A stretch of DNA of 64,000 nt from Patescibacteria group bacterium (GTDB lineage Bacteria > Patescibacteriota > UBA1384 > 2-12-FULL-50-11). Below the pieces are notes generated by a model. It did no database searches. It saw only the letters and a list, made by a program, of their open reading frames with translations, and was not told the origin of the DNA. The stretch spans positions 13,606 through 77,605 of the forward strand of contig JBBUAP010000001.1 in the NCBI GenBank assembly GCA_038058635.1, given 5' to 3'. Below, piece by piece: positions 475-44,564 of the stretch. The number at the start of each line of letters is the position of its first letter. Positions within the stretch are counted from its first letter, which is position 1. A program made the position numbers and the translations under genes.

Positions 475-1728
475 ATGGAATCATTGTCTCGTCGAAGGTT
501 TTTGATCTTATCGATGGGCGCTGTTGGTGGATCGATCATCGGTTGCGGCGGCGGCGGTGCGGGTGGTTTTGGGGGCTTCCAGTCGCGGCAAGATCCGTTC
601 ACTGTGGCCGCTAACCAGGCCGTGAGTAAGATGTTCGGTGAGATTGGTGTCGAAATCGCTGCCGGGACATATCCCGATGGCGCTCAATTGATGCTGAAGC
701 AGTCTGGTCAGGCACTGCAAATGCCACCGACGACTAACTTCAAACTGGGCGCACCGGCGCTGGAGTTAAGCTCGAACGCCACAGCCACTAAAGACGTGGT
801 TGTGACGATTCCCGACGATGGTAAGCAATACATTGCCGGCATCGAAGTTGACGGCGAATGGTTGCCACTCCTGAAGATCAGGGCCAATGGCCGGATCAGA
901 TTTACCCTACCCGCCACTTTTGGTCGTTCGGCCGAAGACGGACCAGGACAAGTCTGGCGGTGGGTGATCGGCCTGGTCAAAGACAATCTGTCCGACACTG
1001 GGTATGCCATCAAACAACTGACTCCCGGTGCCCCTTTTGCTAGTTATAGCACGGTTTTGTGTGCTCACGGCATCTTGGACAACTGGCAGTCAATGAGGAA
1101 CTTCATCGGTCCGGCCCAAGCAAAATATGAAGCAAACGGTGTTTACTCGTTTGCCTTTCCCTGGAAAGCGGGCGCCAAAGCAGCTGGTATCGAACTTGCA
1201 GCACTACTGGCGCCGTACAGAAACCAACTCAAACGCATCACCATCATCGGCTACTCACAGGGAGTGCTAGCGGTTCGTTACGCTCTTGAGCGATTAGGGG
1301 CGTCGGCGTCGGTCAAGAACTGCATTTATCTCATGGGGCCAAATTTGGGAAGTATGCTGGCCAACCCGGTCGATTTCAGCTTCAACATCGGCAAGTTCTG
1401 GCTGAACGCCAATCTCAGCGGCTCGCTGTTTGATGTTGATATCAACGACCCGGCTATCAAGGAGTTTATGCCAGGAAACTCTTTCTTGCATGAACTCAAT
1501 TCTTCTCACGGCCTGCCACGCGCTGATGTCAACTACTTTCTCATGAATGGTGGAAAAGACTGGGTGGTTGACGCCAATAGTGGCCAAGCCATAGGCGTTC
1601 CGCTCGGAGAGTTGGTCAGTGGCACGGTCTGGCGAGGAACCGCTCCCGAAGCGAATCACTTCAATATCAAGTCTGATATGAATGTCATGTACAGAACCTT
1701 CGACTTATTGCCGTATTTCTCGCTGTAA
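475..1728 (+). CDS. secreted alpha/beta-hydrolase, lipase/esterase-like
   Basis: N-terminus MESLSRRRFLILSMGAVGGSIIGCGG carries a twin-arginine-like SRRRFL signal plus a lipobox-like IGC. GYSQG matches the GxSxG nucleophile elbow. Start chosen at the ATG at 475 inside ORF 394..1728. Confidence 0.55.
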   Translation: MESLSRRRFLILSMGAVGGSIIGCGGGGAGGFGGFQSRQDPFTVAANQAVSKMFGEIGVEIAAGTYPDGAQLMLKQSGQALQMPPTTNFKLGAPALELSSNATATKDVVVTIPDDGKQYIAGIEVDGEWLPLLKIRANGRIRFTLPATFGRSAEDGPGQVWRWVIGLVKDNLSDTGYAIKQLTPGAPFASYSTVLCAHGILDNWQSMRNFIGPAQAKYEANGVYSFAFPWKAGAKAAGIELAALLAPYRNQLKRITIIGYSQGVLAVRYALERLGASASVKNCIYLMGPNLGSMLANPVDFSFNIGKFWLNANLSGSLFDVDINDPAIKEFMPGNSFLHELNSSHGLPRADVNYFLMNGGKDWVVDANSGQAIGVPLGELVSGTVWRGTAPEANHFNIKSDMNVMYRTFDLLPYFSL

Positions 1729-7234: not shown

Positions 7235-8089
7235 CTAGGGGGGTGCTATTCCCAATTGAATCGCCTGCTTCAGCATCAGTTCCAAACTGGCAATTTGGAT
7301 TTTACGAACCGTGCTTGGCGACAAACCAAGTTGCTTACCGATGCTAGTCAGCGACTGACCATCAACCAGATAGTATTGAGTTACTACCTGGCGCTGGATG
7401 TCGCTCAAACAGGGGAGAAGAGAGTCGATGATCTGCCTGTCAATATTGATTTCGAAGGCCAATTCAGCTCTCTGATCGGGCAGTAAATCGCCCAATCGAC
7501 AACTTCCCTTGCCGCTACTCGAGGTGACCTCACAGTCTAACGAAACTGGTCGTCGGTTGTCCTTAAGTAAGGACATAATTATCTCCGCTTCTCTCACGGA
7601 CGGCTTGGTCGGTACCCCATCAATCTTTCTCAACATTTCTCGGCGATTGATGATCAATTCAAGGGTGGGTTCAAGCCCTTCACGATCGCAGATTCGCTCC
7701 ATTCTTTTGAGGCCGTTAACCACATAGGTTGGTAGGCGAAGCCGACAATCAGACAAATCATCGCTCGTTTCGCGATTGATCGCCTGTCTAATCCAGTAGG
7801 TTGCATAAGTCGAGAATTTGTACTTCTTTTCAACCTTGAATTTATCAATGGCCTTATTGAGGCCTTTGATCCCCCGCTGAAACCTGTCTTCCAGCTCATT
7901 ATTTGTCCGCATTGCTCTAGCAATCTTCCGAACCAGCCGAACATTGTGGTCAATGAGTATTGCCCGCGCCGCCGCTGCGGCGTCAGGATCGCCTTTCTTT
8001 AATTGCTCGAATAAAAATCTCTCTTGCTCCCGTGTCAAAAGAGGCAAGTCGAATGAGGCCTTAAGGACCTCGAGTGAGTCTGAATTCAT
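7235..8089 (-). CDS. RNA polymerase sigma-70 family factor
   Basis: Region 2 motifs DHNVRLVRKIA and STYATYWIRQAI. Region 4 HTH LTSIGKQLGLSPSTVRKI. Confidence 0.8.
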   Translation of the reverse strand: MNSDSLEVLKASFDLPLLTREQERFLFEQLKKGDPDAAAAARAILIDHNVRLVRKIARAMRTNNELEDRFQRGIKGLNKAIDKFKVEKKYKFSTYATYWIRQAINRETSDDLSDCRLRLPTYVVNGLKRMERICDREGLEPTLELIINRREMLRKIDGVPTKPSVREAEIIMSLLKDNRRPVSLDCEVTSSSGKGSCRLGDLLPDQRAELAFEINIDRQIIDSLLPCLSDIQRQVVTQYYLVDGQSLTSIGKQLGLSPSTVRKIQIASLELMLKQAIQLGIAPP

Positions 8090-8235
8090 AACAAGGTCCT
8101 CCTAATTGTAGTGTGCGCCGTAGCGCCCTTCGAATACCTCAGGGTTTTTAGCCCTTCGACTCCTTTCAGTCGCTCAGGGTAGTTCGGGTCTCTTCGTCCT
8201 CTCAGTTTACACTGAGGGAGCGAAGCGACTCGAAG

Positions 8236-8275
8236 TGCGGTCCCAGGGGGATTCGAACCCCCGATCTTCAGAATG
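8236..8275 (-). repeat. duplicated 3' half of tRNA-Glu (exact 40-nt copy of 8378..8417)
   Basis: tgcggtcccagggggattcgaacccccgatcttcagaatg is identical to the 3' portion of the intact tRNA-Glu 140 nt away, covering the anticodon loop through the acceptor 3' strand. Confidence 0.8.
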
Positions 8276-8290
8276 TCGCAGCAATTTACA

Positions 8291-8322
8291 TGGCGGCGTG
8301 TACGGGAGTCGAACCCGTGATC
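8291..8322 (-). pseudogene. orphan tRNA 3' fragment (T-arm, acceptor 3' strand, CCA)
   Basis: Minus strand reads GATCACGGGTTCGACTCCCGTACACGCCGCCA. This is a T-stem/loop (ACGGG-TTCGACT-CCCGT), a 7-nt acceptor strand, discriminator G and CCA. No matching 5' acceptor strand (GGCGTGT) is found nearby. Confidence 0.5.
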
Positions 8323-8379
8323 TCCTGGATGTCGTGCCTGCGGCACTCGCTCTTCGCTGGCGTTCAGAGTGAGAACCTG

Positions 8380-8453
8380 CGGTCCCAGGGGGATTCGAAC
8401 CCCCGATCTTCAGAATGAGAATCTGATGTCCTAGGCCTCTAGACGATGGGACC
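8380..8453 (-). tRNA. tRNA-Glu (anticodon CUC)
   Basis: GGTCCCATCGTCTAGAGGCCTAGGACATCAGATTCTCATTCTGAAGATCGGGGGTTCGAATCCCCCTGGGACCG. The 7-bp acceptor is perfect. Anticodon loop TTCTCAT with U33 and A37. T-loop TTCGAAT. Confidence 0.85.
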
Positions 8454-8493
8454 AAAGTAAACTTGCTCTGATAGTTTAGCTCAAAAAGTCTTC

Positions 8494-8568
8494 TTAGTCG
8501 AGCAGTTCCCTGACTTTGGCGACGAGCTCCTTGGGGGTGACTTCGATTTAAAGAAAATATCCCTGAAC
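8494..8568 (-). pseudogene. decayed copy of the response-regulator gene 3' end
   Basis: About 80% identical to the 3' end of CDS 11277..11651. Minus-strand translation is VQGYFL*IEVTPKELVAKVRELLD*, with an internal stop, versus VQGYYLKTEITPKELVEKIEVLLTSS in the intact gene. Confidence 0.6.
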
Positions 8569-8590: not shown

Positions 8591-9280
8591 CTATAGGACA
8601 TTACTGTTAAGAACCCCCCACTTCTTAAAAGAGAAGAGCTTGGCTGGCCGATAGATACTATTCTTCTGCCTGCCGACTATCTCAACGATATCGAGCGCAA
8701 TAAACTTGCGACGGAAGTTCCGCTTGTCTAGCGGTCGAGCGAGAATGATTTCGTAGAGCTCTTGGAGTTGTGGGAGGGTAAATTGCCTGGGTAGCAAGCT
8801 CGAAATGATAGTGGTGTTTATCAATTTCGATTTCAAGCTTTCAGCTGCAACCTTGATCATGTCTTTGTGGTCAAAGGCTAACTCCGGCAAGGCGGAAACC
8901 GGAAACCACTGGCCGCTTTCTGTTGAATTTATATCAGTGGCTACAGCAGGGACCAGGGCCAGAAAGGCGACGGAAATCGCCCGGCTCCGTTTATCACGAT
9001 CGGGATCGCTGAAGGTGTGGAATTGTTCAATATGAACATCTTTGACCCCTACTTTTTCACTGAGATGGCGCCTGGCCGAGGCCTCAGCCGATTCGTCAGA
9101 ACGAATAACCCCACCTGGTACGCCATGTTGATGTCGGTAGTGCGGCGGCCGGTGAACCGGCATCAGAAAAACTTGGACTTTATTTTTGAGCACACTTAAA
9201 AGCACGACATCGACGGCGGCGATTGCCACCCTGAGTCGAGCTACAGTCTCAACGAAAGATTCTTTTGATTGTTTTGTCAT
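8591..9280 (-). CDS. NUDIX hydrolase family protein with a C-terminal winged-helix-like domain (NrtR-like architecture)
   Basis: Nudix-box-like GGVIRSDESAEASARRHLSEKVGV followed by about 90 aa of C-terminal domain. 229 aa. Confidence 0.55.
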   Translation of the reverse strand: MTKQSKESFVETVARLRVAIAAVDVVLLSVLKNKVQVFLMPVHRPPHYRHQHGVPGGVIRSDESAEASARRHLSEKVGVKDVHIEQFHTFSDPDRDKRSRAISVAFLALVPAVATDINSTESGQWFPVSALPELAFDHKDMIKVAAESLKSKLINTTIISSLLPRQFTLPQLQELYEIILARPLDKRNFRRKFIALDIVEIVGRQKNSIYRPAKLFSFKKWGVLNSNVL

Positions 9281-9343
9281 CGTTTAATTGAAATATATCA
9301 TTTATAAGAACAGGGGGGCTATTCGCCCCCCTAAGGTTTTCTA

Positions 9344-10255
9344 TCAAACAACTCGGTGAACAACACGTTCACCAACGGTAACGGTCACGGTGCTACCGGC
9401 CGGCCAGTCGACACCCTTTTCGATAATGCCATCTGAGAAGATGACGCCGCCCCTGGGCATCTCAGAGGTTAGTTTCAGCAAGGACCCGACGACAACTCGT
9501 CCGGTCACGATTGTCGCGCCGGTCACCGGCGAGGGGAACGGATCGCGAACGACGAAGACTAGCTCTAAGTCGGTCGGACCCGGTAGCTGCGTCAAAAGAT
9601 GGCGCCCCCGTTCTGGGATTAGACCATCGACCATCGCCACGATTGAACGTAACCAGCCGTTGGTCCCGACGCCAGTTGAGACGATCACGCCGTCCGACGA
9701 GTGTCGTTCCTCCCGACTACCAAAGGCAATCTTGTATCGGGCCGAAATGTGATCCCGGCGGCCGATAAAGATGTCGTTGATGCCCCAGACGACTTTGTCG
9801 TCGCTCGTCGTCGCTTTGACGAACGGCAGGTCCTCGACGAGGTACTTGCCATTCTTGACGCGAGTAATGACATCGCCAACCTGAGTTGGTCCAAATGGCA
9901 TTAGGTTGCCGATGATGCTGCTGGGATCGGGATTGATTCCGAGCACCAGTTGGTTTGTGACGTATTGAGCCAGGTTGACAAACAGTCCATCCGGCCCGCA
10001 GACGATCACCAGATCGTCGTCTCGAAAGAGAAACGTCGGCAAGTCGTTCCGAGAAACGGTGGTGACCGCCAGATCATTGGGGATCTGGCGGCGGACCGTT
10101 ATCAGAGCGTCTTGGTAGGTTGTGTGTTCGTCTCGATACGGAGCGATGGAGTCGCCCTTCGTTTCGAGAATGAACTGGGCCATCCCTTCAGTGAGATGCT
10201 CCCGGATCAACTCCTCGAGCCGAGTTGGTTTCGTAACCACGACGACACGATCCAT
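9344..10255 (-). CDS. NAD kinase family protein (divergent: GPDG instead of GGDG)
   Basis: DLVIVCGPDGLF in place of the GGDGT motif. NAD-kinase C-terminal-like DGVIVSTGVGTNGW (compare DGxxxSTPTGSTAY). GC-rich. Its start is coupled to the upstream gene stop (TAA-AG-ATG). Confidence 0.5.
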   Translation of the reverse strand: MDRVVVVTKPTRLEELIREHLTEGMAQFILETKGDSIAPYRDEHTTYQDALITVRRQIPNDLAVTTVSRNDLPTFLFRDDDLVIVCGPDGLFVNLAQYVTNQLVLGINPDPSSIIGNLMPFGPTQVGDVITRVKNGKYLVEDLPFVKATTSDDKVVWGINDIFIGRRDHISARYKIAFGSREERHSSDGVIVSTGVGTNGWLRSIVAMVDGLIPERGRHLLTQLPGPTDLELVFVVRDPFPSPVTGATIVTGRVVVGSLLKLTSEMPRGGVIFSDGIIEKGVDWPAGSTVTVTVGERVVHRVV

Positions 10256-10257
10256 CT

Positions 10258-11136
10258 TTAGCCTCCTTTTCTGCCGTTACTGGTAACCGCAGCGAGTAGC
10301 TCCGTCGTCAGGGCGACCGATCCGAGTTTTCCTTCCTTGGCGGCGACCATCAGTGAGGCGGCCATCAGTTTGCCGGAGTCGATGTCGATCATTGGCTTCA
10401 GACGAAGCTCGGTAGCTTCGGCTTCCGACCCGGCAAGTGCGACCATGTTCTTGCCCTGCTCGGCGACGAACATGGAACGATCAACTTCGAGCTTGAGGTT
10501 GGTCTCAGCCTCAAAAGCTCTAACCCTTCGCTCGTTATCGGCGGCTTTGAGCCGACGCTCGTGCCGGGCAGTATCCGCCGCCGAGAGCAGACCCTCGCGC
10601 TCTTCAGAGCCGATCGCTTCGTTGACTTCATCGTCGGATGGCTCGACCGTCGAGACCGAGCAGCTTTCGATTGTGACGCCACGCGCTACCAACGAGTTGG
10701 TCTCGCCAGCGATCGCCCTACGGATCGTTTCCTCAAATTGCGGCTGAGAGGTGACGGCAGTCGAGATATCGAGCTCAAGCGCCTGGGTCCGGATTGGACC
10801 AAGAACCTGATCGATCATGCTCTGCTGGAGTAACGCCTCCCATCTGCTGCGGTAGCCACCGCTGTGGTTGTCGACGGTGAAGTCGAAAGTGCTCTTGGCA
10901 ACCTGGCCGTTAAGCCTGGCCTGAATGCAGCCACTGACGGTGATTTGCTGCTTGTCGCGCGAGTACGCTTCGACAGAAAAGTTAACAACCTGTGCAATGG
11001 TTGGAACGACGGCCACAGTGGTCATCGGGCCGATCAGTCCACCCCAGCCGATCCCTCGGTCCTGGAACGTTCCTCGACTCAGAGTGAAAACGTGGCCAGT
11101 AGCACCAGCCGCGTGAAACAGTGTGATACCAAACAT
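10258..11136 (-). CDS. SPFH/band-7 (flotillin/stomatin-like) domain protein
   Basis: PHB-domain-like N-terminal half followed by an ERRLKAADNERRVRAFEAE coiled-coil region. About 60% GC, well above the window average. SD CAGGAGG precedes the ATG. Confidence 0.45.
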   Translation of the reverse strand: MFGITLFHAAGATGHVFTLSRGTFQDRGIGWGGLIGPMTTVAVVPTIAQVVNFSVEAYSRDKQQITVSGCIQARLNGQVAKSTFDFTVDNHSGGYRSRWEALLQQSMIDQVLGPIRTQALELDISTAVTSQPQFEETIRRAIAGETNSLVARGVTIESCSVSTVEPSDDEVNEAIGSEEREGLLSAADTARHERRLKAADNERRVRAFEAETNLKLEVDRSMFVAEQGKNMVALAGSEAEATELRLKPMIDIDSGKLMAASLMVAAKEGKLGSVALTTELLAAVTSNGRKGG

Positions 11137-11212
11137 CTTAGCCTCCTGGAGAGTCTCTCCGTTTCGCTCCTACATTATGTGAAGCTACGTTAGTGTATTT
11201 ACTACACTATAT

Positions 11213-11246
11213 AAATGTATTATATACACTTACTACAGCTTGTCAA
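11213..11246 (-). promoter_or_regulatory. consensus sigma-70 promoter for the GC-rich three-gene operon
   Basis: On the minus strand: TTGACA, 16-nt spacer, TATAAT. It sits in an AT-rich 140-nt spacer, about 80 nt upstream of the ATG at 11136. Confidence 0.55.
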
Positions 11247-11276
11247 TACCCTTTCTTTAGTAAATATCCCGTAAAT

Positions 11277-11651
11277 TTAGCTGGACGTTAGCAACACTTC
11301 AATTTTCTCAACGAGCTCTTTGGGGGTGATTTCGGTTTTTAGATAGTATCCCTGAACACGATTCTTGGCTTGCTCTTTATAGTCCGGGTTGGGTAGAGCG
11401 GTGAGAATGATAATCGGGATATGTTTGGTCTCCGGCAAGGTCCGGAAAACTTTGAGAGCCCCCAGCCCACCTTGGCGAGGAAGCATCAAGTCTAGCAAAA
11501 TGATATCGGGGTTATTGTTCAAGGCGACATCAATAGCCGATAAGCCGTCCCCCGCCTCAATAACCGTAAAGTTATGATGAGTGAAGGCCTCCTTATAGAG
11601 CCAGCGCAGTTCCTCGTTATCCTCGACTAACAATATCTTTTTTTGGCTCAT
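11277..11651 (-). CDS. single-domain response regulator (CheY-like receiver)
   Basis: ILLVEDNEELRWLY...DIILLDLMLP...IPIIILTA. 124 aa with no output domain. Confidence 0.85.
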   Translation of the reverse strand: MSQKKILLVEDNEELRWLYKEAFTHHNFTVIEAGDGLSAIDVALNNNPDIILLDLMLPRQGGLGALKVFRTLPETKHIPIIILTALPNPDYKEQAKNRVQGYYLKTEITPKELVEKIEVLLTSS

Positions 11652-14409: not shown

Positions 14410-14520
14410 GGGGAATTACTGAATAACTAAATTACGAAATTACTGAATTAAAAGCTTCCACAATTCAGTAGCTTCGAACGAAGTGAGAAGCGAGCGAAGC
14501 GACATTCAGTAATTGTATAA
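14410..14520. promoter_or_regulatory. array of ATTACTGAAT / ATTCAGTAAT dyad repeats upstream of the ATPase operon
   Basis: ATTACTGAAT occurs twice and its reverse complement ATTCAGTAAT twice within 110 nt, immediately upstream of the ATPase start. Confidence 0.4.
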
Positions 14521-15770: not shown

Positions 15771-15780
15771 TACCTATTTG

Positions 15781-15851
15781 TTCCGGGACTTGGATTCGAA
15801 CCAAGGTTGCCAGGCTCAGAACCTGGAGGCCTACCACTAGCCGATCCCGGA
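15781..15851 (-). tRNA. tRNA-Gln (anticodon CUG)
   Basis: TCCGGGATCGGCTAGTGGTAGGCCTCCAGGTTCTGAGCCTGGCAACCTTGGTTCGAATCCAAGTCCCGGAA. Perfect acceptor. Anticodon loop TTCTGAG. Confidence 0.85.
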
Positions 15852-15854
15852 GTA

Positions 15855-16541
15855 TTAATCCTTCGAGAAAGATATTAATTCAATAAACTTCGCTACCTCC
15901 AACTTTCTTGCTAACCTCACATCTCGATGCCTGAACTGTGGATTGTAACCAAGTCTCAAAAGCGCATTGTAAACATCCTCAAGTAAACTATGGTTGTAGC
16001 TTGTGTATTTTATCACGCAAGTATGATTATTTGAATCAACACAGAGGTTTCCGTCACTCTCAAACATCCCCTTTAGACAACGGACTAGATGCAAATTACT
16101 TCTTTTTATCCACGCGGGTACCCGTAGCTCGTGTCGTATCTTAATACCGGTCGGAAAATCAAGCCTAGACGAAATATGTTTTTGGTATAGATATACATCA
16201 ACACATTTGGAGTCCTTCCGGATCCGGATTGTAGGCTTCTTCTTAAAGATTTCCTCGGTTAACTTCGCTAACCGCCCAATTCTCTTCTGCTCCTTGGAAT
16301 TGAAGCATAGCGTTAGTTTCTCTGTTCTTGGGTATCGCTCGACACAGCCATCCCCTAGAAGTACGCCATAGAATTCGGCAGAATCAGGGCTGCGTTCTAG
16401 TTGTGCATAATATACTGGGTGAGCTACCTCCCATTTTCGAAAATTGCTTTGCATCCTACCCGACATAGTGAGCGACATTTTCATCAGGCTGGGATGATTA
16501 TCTTTAGTGAGACCCTTATTCCAAGGAGTTCTACCTTTCAT
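15855..16541 (-). CDS. LAGLIDADG-family homing endonuclease (double-motif, freestanding)
   Basis: Two LAGLIDADG-type motifs, FYGVLLGDGCV and CLKGMFESDGNL. N-terminal GRTPWNKG. AT-rich relative to its neighbours. It ends 3 nt before tRNA-Gln. Confidence 0.7.
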   Translation of the reverse strand: MKGRTPWNKGLTKDNHPSLMKMSLTMSGRMQSNFRKWEVAHPVYYAQLERSPDSAEFYGVLLGDGCVERYPRTEKLTLCFNSKEQKRIGRLAKLTEEIFKKKPTIRIRKDSKCVDVYLYQKHISSRLDFPTGIKIRHELRVPAWIKRSNLHLVRCLKGMFESDGNLCVDSNNHTCVIKYTSYNHSLLEDVYNALLRLGYNPQFRHRDVRLARKLEVAKFIELISFSKD

Positions 16542-16626: not shown

Positions 16627-18099
16627 CTACCTAGCTGAAAGTTTCTTGATCGCTGTATTGAGGCGCTTGGTCGACTCTTCCTTACCAATTACAGATAATA
16701 ATTCGAAAGCACCTGGTGAGGCGTCGCGACCAGACAAGGCGACTCGAACAGCCCAGAGCAGTTCGCCGTCCTTAATTTTCAAGTCCTCGGCGGCCCCACG
16801 CAGAGCCGGCTCGACTTCATCAAGTCCCAATGTTTTTAGTTCACTCACGACCTTAACGGCCGATTTCAGGGCGGCCAAAGTATTGGCTTCGGTCGATTTC
16901 TTGGCGACTAATAATGATTGTTCATATTTCGGGCTAATGAAGAAGTAACCAATCTGATCTTCGATTTCACTCAGTAGCTTGAGCCGATCGTGGACCAAAG
17001 CAATCGCATTCAAATAGTAGTCGGGCTCTTCCGTGACGGCTTTTTGCAGTTCATTATTGGTGATGAATTCGCGTCCGGCATCGGCCACTTCACCGATCGA
17101 TTTTTGGCGAAGATAGTAGCCGTTCATCCAAAGCAATTTTTCGGAATCGAAAATAGATGGACTTGTGCCAACTCGGTTGATTTCAAACTCATCGATCAGT
17201 TCCGACATTGAAAATATTTCCCGTTCAGTGCCCGAATTCCAGCCCAAAAGCGCGATGTAATTTACCAGAGCATCTGGCAGAAAGCCCTTGGCTTTATAGT
17301 CGTCCGAGATCGAAACCGGATTTTTGCGCTTGCTCATTTTTGAGCGGTCTTTGTTGAAAATAAGCGGGAAGTGACCGAATTGTGGGCTCAAAAAATTGAG
17401 GGCGTCAGCCAAAAGTATTTGTTTAGCGGTGTTGACTAAATGCTCCTCGCCCCGCAGGACATGGCTAATTTTCATCAGATTATCGTCAATAACATTTGAC
17501 AGGACAAACAGCGGCATACCGTCCGAGCGTTGAATGACGAAATCGCCAAACAAGCCGGCATCAAATTCGACCTTGCCTTTGATTAGATCGTCAAAACTGA
17601 CCTTTTGCGGTTCAACAACAAAACGGACGGCGCTAGAACGATGTTCTCGCTCGAACTGGTCGATCTCTGTGGCCGACAAATGCCGACATCGGCCGGAGTA
17701 TTTTGGGGCGGAGCCCTGGCTCTGCTGGCTCTCCCGTTCGGCCGCTAACTCTTCCGGCGTACAGTAACAACGGTAAGCCAGTTTCTTATCGATGAGTTGC
17801 AACACGAACGGGTCGTAAAGCCCGAGCCGTTCCTTTTGAAAGTACGGCCCGTAAGGCCCGCCGACTTCCGGTCCTTCGTCCCAGTCCATGCCGAGCCACT
17901 TCAACCCGTCGAGGATATCTTTCAGCGATGAGTCGTCGTGTCGTTGTTGATCGGTATCCTCTACTCGCACAACAAACTTACCGCCAAATTTCTTGGCAAA
18001 CAAATAATTGAACAGGGCTGTACGGGCCGTGCCAATATGGAACTTGCCGGTTGGGCTAGGAGCAATCCTTACTCTGATTTCGTCAGCCATTGAATTCAA
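16627..18099 (-). CDS. gltX: glutamyl-tRNA synthetase
   Basis: HIGH as PSPTGKFHIGTART and KMSKS as KMSKRKN. 490 aa. Confidence 0.9.
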   Translation of the reverse strand: MNSMADEIRVRIAPSPTGKFHIGTARTALFNYLFAKKFGGKFVVRVEDTDQQRHDDSSLKDILDGLKWLGMDWDEGPEVGGPYGPYFQKERLGLYDPFVLQLIDKKLAYRCYCTPEELAAERESQQSQGSAPKYSGRCRHLSATEIDQFEREHRSSAVRFVVEPQKVSFDDLIKGKVEFDAGLFGDFVIQRSDGMPLFVLSNVIDDNLMKISHVLRGEEHLVNTAKQILLADALNFLSPQFGHFPLIFNKDRSKMSKRKNPVSISDDYKAKGFLPDALVNYIALLGWNSGTEREIFSMSELIDEFEINRVGTSPSIFDSEKLLWMNGYYLRQKSIGEVADAGREFITNNELQKAVTEEPDYYLNAIALVHDRLKLLSEIEDQIGYFFISPKYEQSLLVAKKSTEANTLAALKSAVKVVSELKTLGLDEVEPALRGAAEDLKIKDGELLWAVRVALSGRDASPGAFELLSVIGKEESTKRLNTAIKKLSAR

Positions 18100-31413: not shown

Positions 31414-32047
31414 TAGTTGACTGATATTTCTTTCTGCTGACTAGATTCCAAATCTTTTCGAGCAGTCTCTGTAAAGGACGATCAAGAGCAACTAATAATC
31501 CAAACCCGATCACTCCGATCAGCCAGCCACCTAGAATATCGCCAACGAAATGAAAACCGATAGCCACTCTGGCGATGCTCGATAAAACAGTTGCGACTAG
31601 AAAGATCCAGGCCCAGGTTTTTTGGCGGTAGTAAAACAGGGCGCAAGTCACAAATAGTAAGACCGCGGCGTGGTCAGATGGGAAAGCTTTTTGGGGTTGC
31701 TCCAGTAATAGCTCCTTGATGCCAGCAAAGGCAAACGGCCGATCACGAAAACCAAATTGAGTGTAAAAGAACTCACCGGCCAGCTTACTCATCACTTGCC
31801 AGGTAAAAATCGCCCCGATAAATATCTTCACCGCCACCCAACGGCTGGTTTTTTGCCAGACCAACCAAACTAAAGCGATTGGCAGTAAAAAGATCGGGTA
31901 TGAGGCAAAGATATAAGCTATCTTTTGAAGAGCGAGATTGTCTCTGGTAAAGCGGTACATTTCCTCCGTCAGATTTTGATCAACCACGATTAGTGACATA
32001 TCTGCTAAAGTATATCCGATGAAGCCAACTTGCCCAAGCAATGTCAC
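31394..32047 (-). CDS. PAP2-family phosphatase (undecaprenyl-diphosphatase-like)
   Basis: PAP2 motifs PSDHA and ARVAIGFHFVGD (SRxxxxxHxxxD-like). Membrane protein. Confidence 0.7.
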   Translation of the reverse strand: MTLLGQVGFIGYTLADMSLIVVDQNLTEEMYRFTRDNLALQKIAYIFASYPIFLLPIALVWLVWQKTSRWVAVKIFIGAIFTWQVMSKLAGEFFYTQFGFRDRPFAFAGIKELLLEQPQKAFPSDHAAVLLFVTCALFYYRQKTWAWIFLVATVLSSIARVAIGFHFVGDILGGWLIGVIGFGLLVALDRPLQRLLEKIWNLVSRKKYQSTNAPETS

Positions 32048-32085
32048 TCACAAGCTCGTTCGTCTTACTCACCAGCGTTCGTAAG

Positions 32086-33024
32086 ATGACAATCAGTCGA
32101 GCTGTTAAAGACTACCTTCGATTTCTAGCCACCGCCCGTGGCGCTTCAGCGCACACCGTTAAAAACTATCGCCACTACTTAGCTAGTTTCCAGAGCTGGG
32201 CCGAGTCGAACAGGGTGGAACATATCGAGAAGCTGACTGGCGAAGAAATCATCGACTACCAACTGGTTTTGCTTGACCCGGGCGGAGTTAAACGGAGCCG
32301 AGCGACTGTCAACTACTATTTAATCGCCCTACGATCGTTACTCAAATACTTGATTGGCCGCGATCTGGTAGTCTTACCGCCAGAAAAGGTAACTTTAAGT
32401 AAGGTGCCGGGGCGACAGGTTCACTTTTTGTCGCCAGAGGAGATGGGGGAGATGATCTCGTCAGAACCGCTTGAAAATATGTCCGACTACCGCGACCGAG
32501 CCATCATCTCTGTTTTATTTTCGACTGGCCTGCGAATTAGCGAGCTATTAGCTCTGAAGCGCAACCAAATTAATCTAGCCACCGGCGAATTTTCCGTTCG
32601 CGGTAAGGGCGGCAAAGTTCGACCGGTGTTTCTTTCTGAAAGTGCCCTTGACGCTCTCGGTGAGTATATCGATCAGCGCGCCGACACCAATCCGTTTGTC
32701 TTTGTCAGGCACCACAAAAAAAGTGCGCTCGATTCAACGAAGCTGCCGCTTTCCGGTCGAACTGTTCAGCGCTCTATTCGCGACATCGCCGCTCGAGCCG
32801 GCATTACCAAGCCAATCAGCCCCCATAAAATCCGCCATTCATTCGCCACCGATTTACTTCGCAACGGAGCCGATCTGCGCTCGGTCCAGGCCTTGCTTGG
32901 CCACTCGTCAATCACCACCACCCAAATTTATACTCATGTCACCGACAAAAGCCTGAAAGACATCCATCAGCGCTTCCACTCACCGAAAGCGAACTTGCCT
33001 CTTGATAGCGAGCAACATTCCTGA
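32086..33024 (+). CDS. tyrosine recombinase XerC/XerD family
   Basis: Core-binding domain plus catalytic LFSTGLRISEL...HKIRHSFATDLLRNGADLRSVQALLGHSSITTTQIYTHV (R..HxxR..Y). Start at MTISR inside ORF 32041..33024. Confidence 0.8.
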   Translation: MTISRAVKDYLRFLATARGASAHTVKNYRHYLASFQSWAESNRVEHIEKLTGEEIIDYQLVLLDPGGVKRSRATVNYYLIALRSLLKYLIGRDLVVLPPEKVTLSKVPGRQVHFLSPEEMGEMISSEPLENMSDYRDRAIISVLFSTGLRISELLALKRNQINLATGEFSVRGKGGKVRPVFLSESALDALGEYIDQRADTNPFVFVRHHKKSALDSTKLPLSGRTVQRSIRDIAARAGITKPISPHKIRHSFATDLLRNGADLRSVQALLGHSSITTTQIYTHVTDKSLKDIHQRFHSPKANLPLDSEQHS

Positions 33025-44452: not shown

Positions 44453-44564
44453 TTCCCCTCGAATTCCATACTAACAGGATTCATGACTTACTTCTTGATT
44501 CTTGATTCATAACTGCGAGGCATTGCCGAGAAGCGAGCGTTAGCGACATTCTTGATTCTTCCTG

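Follow-up and report, generated by a model that had tools for sequence, protein, structure and literature searches.

Stacked 3' halves of tRNA-Glu(CUC) resembling attachment-site remnants, with an unexplained hairpin spacer, in a Candidatus Berkelbacteria chromosome

A 64-kb stretch of chromosomal DNA (hereafter the window) from Candidatus Berkelbacteria (Patescibacteria/candidate phyla radiation, CPR), recovered from Hainich groundwater, carries a complete tRNA-Glu(CUC) gene followed by two further 3' halves of tRNA-Glu genes, one an exact duplicate of the resident 3' half and one from a foreign allele, and by a hairpin-forming spacer. This feature is of a known kind, namely stacked attachment-site remnants at a tRNA gene, combined with an unusual and unexplained spacer module. 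The reading that we favour, on which our own judgement stands evenly balanced, is that the locus represents a decayed and reshuffled stack of attachment-site remnants at a tRNA-Glu(CUC) recombination hot spot; the remnants are most likely non-functional as tRNAs. Here, we lay out the evidence from the window and from about ten syntenic loci in relatives, which were found via homologues of HisRS and of the sigma factor encoded beside the tRNA.

The 40-mer TGCGGTCCCAGGGGGATTCGAACCCCCGATCTTCAGAATG occurs exactly twice in the window, at 8236..8275 and 8378..8417, with zero mismatches between the copies, while no match was obtained in 100 shuffles. Read on the tRNA strand (CATTCTGAAGATCGGGGGTTCGAATCCCCCTGGGACCGCA), it comprises the last 40 nt from the anticodon base C36 to the discriminator G73 plus 'CA', so that a direct repeat of the 3' portion has one copy inside an intact tRNA and its boundary at the canonical crossover sublocation, in the anticodon loop at C36. 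This confirms the exact duplicate reported in a preliminary description of the DNA, apart from the offset given there as 140 nt; the actual start-to-start distance is 142 nt. The intact tRNA scores 63.5 bits over 8380..8453 with the Rfam tRNA model and is identical to that of the related locus L017 (75/75) and nearly so to that of L064 (74/75), whose 3' half matches the downstream copy at 40/40 positions. Between the exact copies lies a 102-nt remnant made up of a spacer (S), the foreign half (O_E) and a linker, which gives the following layout in the direction of the tRNA:

8379..8453, minus strand: intact tRNA-Glu(CUC), 'type A' allele, without encoded CCA, identified by ARAGORN and the Rfam tRNA model
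8378..8417, minus strand: first copy of the repeat, the 3' 40 nt of the intact tRNA-Glu
8332..8377, minus strand: spacer S, 46 nt (GGTTCTCACTCTGAACGCCAGCGAAGAGCGAGTGCCGCAGGCACGA), placed by aligned S units
8291..8331, minus strand: O_E, 3' half of a foreign 'type E' tRNA-Glu(CUC) allele, from C36 to the discriminator plus CCA (CATCCAGGAGATCACGGGTTCGACTCCCGTACACGCCGCCA)
8276..8290, minus strand: 15-nt linker (TGTAAATTGCTGCGA), whose end (GCGA, then CAT) is like the 3' end of S and of a dispersed repeat, M, described below
8236..8275, minus strand: O_A, second copy of the repeat, an exact 40-nt copy of the resident tRNA-Glu 3' half, adjoining the ancestral downstream flank
8185..8235, minus strand: ancestral downstream flank, 'hairpin A' (CTTCGAGTCGCTTCGCTCCCTCAGTGTAAACTGAGAGGACGAAG..), running into the sigma-gene leader; near-identical in L015, L017 and L019, where a tRNA 3' end or fragment immediately precedes it

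Across the locus, two independent assemblies from Hainich groundwater (ERZ1292629 and ERZ1292640) are 100% identical, which rules out an assembly artefact. Short k-mer Logan (k=31) contigs stop inside the repeat, as expected of a true repeat. Logan (k=31) contigs likewise end inside or beside tRNA-half repeats in L003, L006, L014 and L016, indicating that short-read assemblies systematically break at this locus.

O_E consists of the 3' strand of the anticodon stem, the variable loop, the T arm, the 3' strand of the acceptor stem, the discriminator G and CCA. Its sequence is unique in the window, and no 5' partner was found there. The preliminary description had taken it for the orphan 3' fragment of a different tRNA, with a parent to be recognised by the 5' acceptor strand GGCGTGT. 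Such a parent exists in L063, a related Berkelbacteria metagenome-assembled genome (MAG), which carries at the same locus an intact tRNA-Glu(CUC) (GGCGTGT...CATCCAGGAGATCACGGGTTCGATTCCCGTACACGCCG) whose 3' half matches O_E at 39/41 positions, compared with 35/41 and 31/41 for the other tRNA-Glu 3' halves in L020 and L019. Judged by sequence, the orphan fragment is therefore half of a different tRNA-Glu(CUC) allele that comes from a related lineage, and not a piece of another tRNA species. The linker that follows it is kept at 12/15 positions in L016, in the same place between O_E and O_A.

Alignment of the relatives, which the preliminary description had proposed for finding the ancestral arrangement, recovered the order P-type ATPase, response regulator, tRNA-Glu(CUC), leader, sigma factor, 296-aa protein, HisRS and IleRS. 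In four loci the tRNA stands alone and is followed directly by the flank (L019 and L054 with allele B, L064 with allele A, and L063 with allele E), so that the unoccupied site of a putative integration is present among the relatives. In L019, the flank right after the intact tRNA (CTTCGAGTCGCTTCG..) is the same flank that adjoins O_A in the window (CTTCGAG...). Arrays with one to three extra halves are found in the window, L017, L058 and L059, and partially in L016, which contains the composite of the window (T arm and acceptor strand of O_E, linker, O_A). L017 has an allele-A tRNA, S, the same half up to the T arm, then the acceptor strand CCAGAGC and the ancestral flank. In L059, S and a half alternate three times, with the acceptor strands TGGCGCC, CCAGAGC and TGGGACC, and there is no intact tRNA. 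L058 has an intact tRNA, S, a half with an interrupted T loop, another S and a truncated half. The interruption (within 1343..1600) is a 39-nt S-like insert in the T loop of a dead half, absent from the same half in L059, and the intact tRNA of L058 is preceded by a displaced 15-nt tRNA 5' fragment and a 38-nt GAGCGA-rich filler; the small insertions in this locus look templated, with junction repeats of 1-2 nt. L058 and L059 belong to one species: from the 297-aa gene onward their identity is 99.7%, but upstream of it they are unrelated. Another allele (allele C in L020), with an encoded CCA, is found in L020-L022. In L020 (8538..8940), the allele-C tRNA-Glu is followed about 110 nt later by a fragment reaching from the T loop to the 3' end (GAATCCCGTACCCGCCG), and the segment comprising tRNA and fragment is bracketed by 28-nt direct repeats (CGCCGGAATACCACATCTGGCAAAGCGT). 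Both L016 and L020 have fragments bounded at the T loop.

The gene content of the tRNA neighbourhood is hypervariable. Between the response regulator and the 296-aa gene it differs in nearly every relative and includes thymidine kinase, UbiA, NrtR/Band7 or HTH/KTI12/methyltransferase genes, with a sigma gene present, absent or of another class. Every extra half starts at C36, after the same ..CGA junction provided by S or by the linker (five genomes), and ends 2-3 nt past G73. The T stems of the halves are GGGGG/CCCCC, ACGGG/CCCGT and CGGGG/CCCCG, with pairing kept, and these compensatory changes indicate that each half comes from a once-functional allele. Since the halves derive from heterologous alleles, foreign DNA has entered the locus, and replication slippage alone, in which all halves would be recent copies of the resident tRNA, is contradicted by the data. 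Taken together, the span and register of the halves, their origin from heterologous alleles, the unoccupied sites and the plasticity of the locus fit the known footprint of site-specific integration at the anticodon loop, and also the way in which partial tRNAs are known to stack up at hot spots of this kind. Attachment-site identity blocks at tRNA genes, including the anticodon-loop class, have been summarised (PMC9897764).

According to the favoured reading, DNA from related lineages that carried its own tRNA-Glu 3' half would repeatedly have been joined into the anticodon-loop region by site-specific recombination in the style of tyrosine integrases. Each integration would have pushed the earlier 3' half downstream, the element bodies would then have been lost, and the remaining units would have been shuffled between lineages by homologous recombination, for which the conserved S, tRNA and flanks may have served as anchors. 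We infer the integration step, the loss of the elements and the reshuffling; an intact element would be expected to carry an attP of the form ..CGA-CAT(3' half)-GGTTCTCAC...

The preliminary description had already interpreted the duplications as a footprint of integration and excision. The span from the anticodon loop to past the 3' end, the foreign alleles, the existence of the predicted parent tRNA in L063 and the hypervariable hot spot support this view in part, whereas the following observations speak against it and against the stack of attachment-site remnants that we favour. No integrase, excisionase or element body was found at the tRNA in the window or in the roughly ten related loci; the integrase and mobile element that were to be sought in relatives are represented there solely by a 5'-truncated open reading frame (ORF) of a large serine recombinase in L015 (70..513, minus strand; PF07508 Recombinase domain only), which adjoins the ancestral flank where tRNA-Glu is missing. 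The sole recombinase gene in the 64 kb is XerC/D-like and lies 24 kb away (32041..33024), between PAP2 and ribosomal-protein/SSB genes. The exact copies are only 142 nt apart. Just 15-50 nt separate successive fragments, and in four genomes this DNA is one and the same conserved module, which independent random deletions of element bodies would not be expected to leave. Nor is S obviously an attP arm, because its core also occurs at intergenic sites away from tRNAs. Moreover, pairing between the acceptor strand of O_E (ACACGCC) and the resident 5' strand (GGTCCCA) is impossible; O_E was therefore never part of a working tRNA of this host, and simple serial integration, in which each 3' half serves in turn, fails for it. 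Finally, a search for a matching attP on free elements brought no real match among IMG/VR, JGI metagenome, INPHARED phage and PLSDB plasmid sequences, three hits in the IMG/VR scans being coincidences in coding sequences; a scan of GTDB genomes with the sigma protein returned nothing useful.

A second event is visible upstream of the tRNA. There, a 2.8-kb block (about 8591..11276) that encodes a Band7/SPFH protein, a 303-aa protein and an NrtR-Nudix regulator is inserted in the 3' end of the response-regulator gene, which thereby gained a new C-terminus. The block is without a recombinase gene and is absent from L017 and L019, and the original gene end is displaced towards the tRNA:

8491..8568, minus strand: displaced original 3' end of the response-regulator gene, about 78 nt, with an 85% match over a 47-nt stretch to 11311..11357; alignment with L017 and L019 identifies it as the orthologous 3' end plus flank

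This insertion is a separate event in the same style as the tRNA remnants. It lends weight to an explanation without integrase, unlikely in our view though by no means negligible, in which DNA taken up from relatives, as circularised or linear pieces, entered by Campbell-type single crossover, homology-facilitated illegitimate recombination or template switching at hairpins. Homologous entry via tRNA-Glu or the response-regulator 3' end would leave partial duplications at the edges of homology, and unequal crossing-over would reshuffle the arrays. The signature is the same at both places, since the integrase-less insertion likewise shows a displaced 3' end and a direct repeat (about 50 nt, 85%). 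Type IV pilus or type II secretion system (T2SS)-type genes are present in the window, identity along the locus is mosaic (93-100% for tRNA and S versus 49% for the sigma protein), and the fillers, short junction repeats and displaced 5' fragment of L058 resemble microhomology-mediated repair. However, in all five genomes the fragments start exactly at C36 and are joined to a ..CGA end, where homology or microhomology edges should scatter; homology between the alleles reaches 5' of C36 (the loop sequence TTCT is invariant), yet this part is left out of the fragments.

The most peculiar part of the array is the spacer. S begins with a copy of the anticodon-stem end and loop (GGTTCTCA in the window), contains a 7-bp hairpin (CTC.CTCT/AGAG.GAG), and its last bases, ..CGA, immediately precede the next 'CAT'. 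An alignment of seven units from four genomes, 40-46 nt in length, has the invariant blocks TTCTCACT, AGCGAG and CGACAT. The hairpin is paired in all 42 cells (100%), with compensatory changes at 2 pairs, an invariant A.C mismatch and tandem G.A pairs. The alignment also shows S to be better conserved than the tRNA halves that it separates, and the variant at its start (AGATTCTCA or GGTTCTCA) follows the anticodon-stem type of its own half. S of the window matches that of L017 at 43/46 positions and the composite O_E-linker-O_A matches that of L016 at 77/81, in contrast to 75% nucleotide identity for the adjacent 296-aa gene; being conserved above the neighbouring gene, S and the composite are either under selection or recently exchanged. 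No match to S was found in Rfam or in phage, plasmid or viral contig collections. S is the unexplained component of the locus and may be either the conserved end sequence of an element family or the recombination-prone repeat itself.

A profile of S revealed that its core is a short repeat, M (CTYYGAAC..AGTGARRAGCGAGCG..AGCGACAT), which is 34-41 nt long, hairpin-forming and intergenic. Outside tRNAs, five copies are present in about 300 kb of Berkelbacteria DNA, which is too few, on too little data, for a mobile family to be declared:

Window, 14472..14505, plus strand: upstream of the P-type ATPase gene, inverted with respect to the orthologous copy in L017
Window, 44527..44549, plus strand: between pilus genes
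L017, 4545..4578: upstream of the ATPase gene
L019, 6457..6490: downstream of IleRS
L020, 5307..5327: upstream of the ATPase gene

With nhmmer, the first model built from S only gave these copies E = 0.002-0.03, and after the copies had been added to the model E ranged from 1e-6 to 0.2. Direct repeats of 8-12 nt bracket four of the five copies, and their right flanks weakly resemble tRNA positions 36-48 (7-9/13 in four copies and 3/13 in L019; the chance of at least 9 is about 2%). Covariation of the hairpin extends to the dispersed copies. These observations bear on the possibility, which we regard as distinctly unlikely, that M is itself active, either as a miniature non-autonomous element or as the site of a trans-acting recombinase, and that it inserts at CAT-TCNG-like sites, the tRNA-Glu anticodon loop included, so as to drive cassette-like arrays of S plus a half. 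In addition to the direct repeats, the tRNA-like flanks and the covarying hairpin, the occurrence of dispersed copies in the window, L019 and L020, the inversion relative to L017, the M-like T-loop insert of L058 that the conspecific L059 lacks, and the fact that S is more conserved than the halves around it all favour activity of M. On the other hand, the 64 kb contain just two dispersed copies, the repeats that flank M differ in length and are embedded in AT-rich DNA that is itself locally repetitive, the window has no transposase or RAYT-like gene, and the E values of the S-only model were modest. A length of 35-45 bp is, moreover, smaller than that of any mobile DNA that we know of. Quite improbable, in our estimation, is the related idea that the S core (about 35-46 nt) serves as recognition site for an as yet unrecognised recombination system acting in trans, which would capture tRNA-Glu 3' halves into integron-like cassette arrays and would also insert at look-alike sites. 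Candidates for it are the lone Xer-like recombinase and an enzyme that acts on single-stranded DNA during transformation. If true, the 'scars' would be the element itself and the smallest known site-specific mobile module.

Conservation of S may also be viewed in terms of function. The sigma gene starts 146 nt downstream of the last tRNA fragment, no terminator-like site was found between tRNA-Glu and the sigma gene in a promoter/terminator scan, and the array region folds more stably than shuffled sequences (z = -4.05). A promoter of tRNA-Glu could read through S and the T-arm hairpins into the sigma gene, and the conserved pieces could be processing, stability or attenuation signals, or operators. 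In line with this, sequence conservation is much higher in the non-coding blocks (upstream flank, S, linker, hairpin A and Shine-Dalgarno region) than in the adjacent genes, and the S hairpin covaries. Nevertheless, we consider a functional RNA or regulatory region very improbable: L019, L054, L064 and L063 have the sigma gene without the array, L020 and L058 lack the sigma gene, and the composition of the array differs within one species. In the window, the inversion of the M copy upstream of the ATPase gene means that any function there would not be that of a strand-specific RNA; no Rfam family matches, and the tRNA and the T arms contribute much of the fold z-score.

That the pieces belong to a single unusual tRNA gene (intron-containing, split or permuted), or that they are an assembly artefact, is exceedingly improbable. 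The boundary between positions 35 and 36 is indeed the site where group I introns are inserted into tRNA-Asn/Asp genes of Patescibacteria (PMC13011429), and S begins with a copy of the anticodon loop. However, a complete and canonical tRNA lies upstream, the insert is absent from all intact relatives, the O_E acceptor strand has no 5' partner in the window, and the locus is the same in both assemblies. The preliminary description had named an intron-containing or permuted tRNA as the finding that would overturn its interpretation; the searches were negative, with the Rfam model matching the intact tRNA alone and ARAGORN, run on four array loci at a lowered threshold and with introns of 0-300 nt permitted, finding nothing more.

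Several other candidates were considered and rejected. A remnant of a group I intron at 35/36 has U35 in its favour; S, however, has 40-46 nt and ends in A, not in G, in all three possible splice registers, and the Rfam search of the region reports no intron family. A 3' end of transfer-messenger RNA (tmRNA) is not detected by ARAGORN, and the acceptor is without G3:U70. S is not a degenerate tRNA 5' half, as its start covaries with the anticodon-stem type but shows no covariation with the acceptor, and S and its own 3' half do not pair. Clustered regularly interspaced short palindromic repeats (CRISPR) do not fit either: the S units of L059 diverge (about 80% identity by eye), the 'spacers' are all tRNA-Glu halves and there are no cas genes. 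An extracytoplasmic function (ECF)-type promoter in the repeat (GAAC..CGAC) was dismissed for its spacing, which varies from 20 to 27 nt, and an integron attC-like site for its core boxes, which do not fit.

Homologues assign the organism to Candidatus Berkelbacteria. The genes that flank the locus are chromosomal housekeeping genes, and the same holds for the entire 64 kb except for the Xer-like recombinase gene. On one side of tRNA-Glu lie the sigma-70-family gene (7235..8089) and the genes for the 296-aa protein, HisRS and IleRS, and on the other those for NrtR/Nudix, the 303-aa protein, Band7, a receiver-only response regulator and the P-type ATPase. A Pfam scan of essentially all larger ORFs in the 64 kb detected no transposase, phage or conjugation genes, no RAYT or insertion sequence (IS) transposase is present in the window, and PHROGs gave no matches for the uncharacterised neighbour proteins. 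The alleles of the sigma-70-family protein are highly divergent, with 49-51% aa identity among close relatives compared with 73-81% for the 296-aa protein and 85% for HisRS (known for L017 and L019), and the gene is absent in L020 and L058; the sigma leader (8090..8235, hairpin A and Shine-Dalgarno region) is nearly invariant. Elsewhere in the window, a 228-aa LAGLIDADG-domain ORF (15855..16541) lies 4 nt upstream of tRNA-Gln(CUG) (15780..15851) on the same strand, near GluRS (16627..18099). It is a free-standing homing-endonuclease-like gene, in the place of which L017, L020 and L054 have other small ORFs.

Partial tRNA duplications are routine markers of integration, which makes the core of the finding ordinary. 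What it adds is the record of a recombination hot spot linked to a tRNA in a CPR lineage about whose mobile elements almost nothing is known, with structural polymorphism within a species that is visible in groundwater populations. The remnants keep alleles of one tRNA from several lineages and so testify directly to an exchange of DNA between Berkelbacteria species. Standard integrase models fail to account for the conserved hairpin spacer, which could lead to the recombination machinery of reduced genomes. The locus also calls for caution in the annotation of tRNAs in CPR MAGs and in the use of assemblers, as contigs break at the tRNA-half repeats.

Among known systems, the closest are the partial tRNA duplications at attL and attR that tyrosine integrases leave by crossover in the anticodon loop, for example that of P22 at thrW. 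Crossover in the anticodon loop is reportedly the class I sublocation of Williams (2002), and the tRNA identity block of such attachment sites is said to go back to Williams (2002, NAR 30:866) and Reiter et al. (1989). The Berkelbacteria locus shares with these sites the 40-nt identity block that starts in the anticodon loop and stops shortly after the 3' end, the intact tRNA upstream, the displaced 3' half against the original flank and the foreign allele sequence. It differs in having only 102 nt between the repeats, no integrase or element here or in the relatives, a middle half that is incompatible with the host 5' half, and spacers that consist of a conserved module. As in repetitive extragenic palindromic (REP) sequences and miniature inverted-repeat transposable elements (MITE), the S core is short (34-41 nt), intergenic and hairpin-forming, and occurs at several unrelated sites in either orientation with short flanking direct repeats; unlike these, it has a very low copy number, no RAYT or transposase is seen, and it is fused to tRNA-Glu 3' halves at a fixed nucleotide.

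Other parallels concern the tRNA halves. In Nanoarchaeum, split tRNA genes include a tRNA-Glu 3' half that is common to two 5' halves, and the free-standing tRNA-Glu 3' halves described here likewise start in the anticodon loop. In contrast to Nanoarchaeum, they lie in a bacterial genome beside a complete tRNA-Glu, without matching 5' halves or complementary leader and trailer, and their acceptor strands are mutually incompatible. Comparable degenerate remnants linked to tRNA genes are the integrase-less, att-flanked remnants of the cis-mobilizable element (CIME) type in streptococci. The group I introns at position 35/36 of Patescibacteria tRNA-Asn/Asp genes, which have a universal 3'-terminal G (PMC13011429), resemble the present locus in phylum and in the boundary after U35 in the anticodon loop. 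They differ from it in being longer than 200 nt, whereas the insert here has 40 nt and no terminal G, is found in no intact tRNA and concerns another isoacceptor. In Prochlorococcus islands, partial tRNAs from successive integrations are stacked together with degenerated elements (bioRxiv 10.1101/2020.12.28.424599). These tycheposon islands contain kilobases of cargo between the partial tRNAs, unlike the units of about 88 nt with a conserved and also dispersed hairpin spacer found here. Like the Berkelbacteria locus, they have partial tRNAs stacked at one tRNA with older ones pushed inward, hypervariable neighbours and some fragmented recombinase genes.

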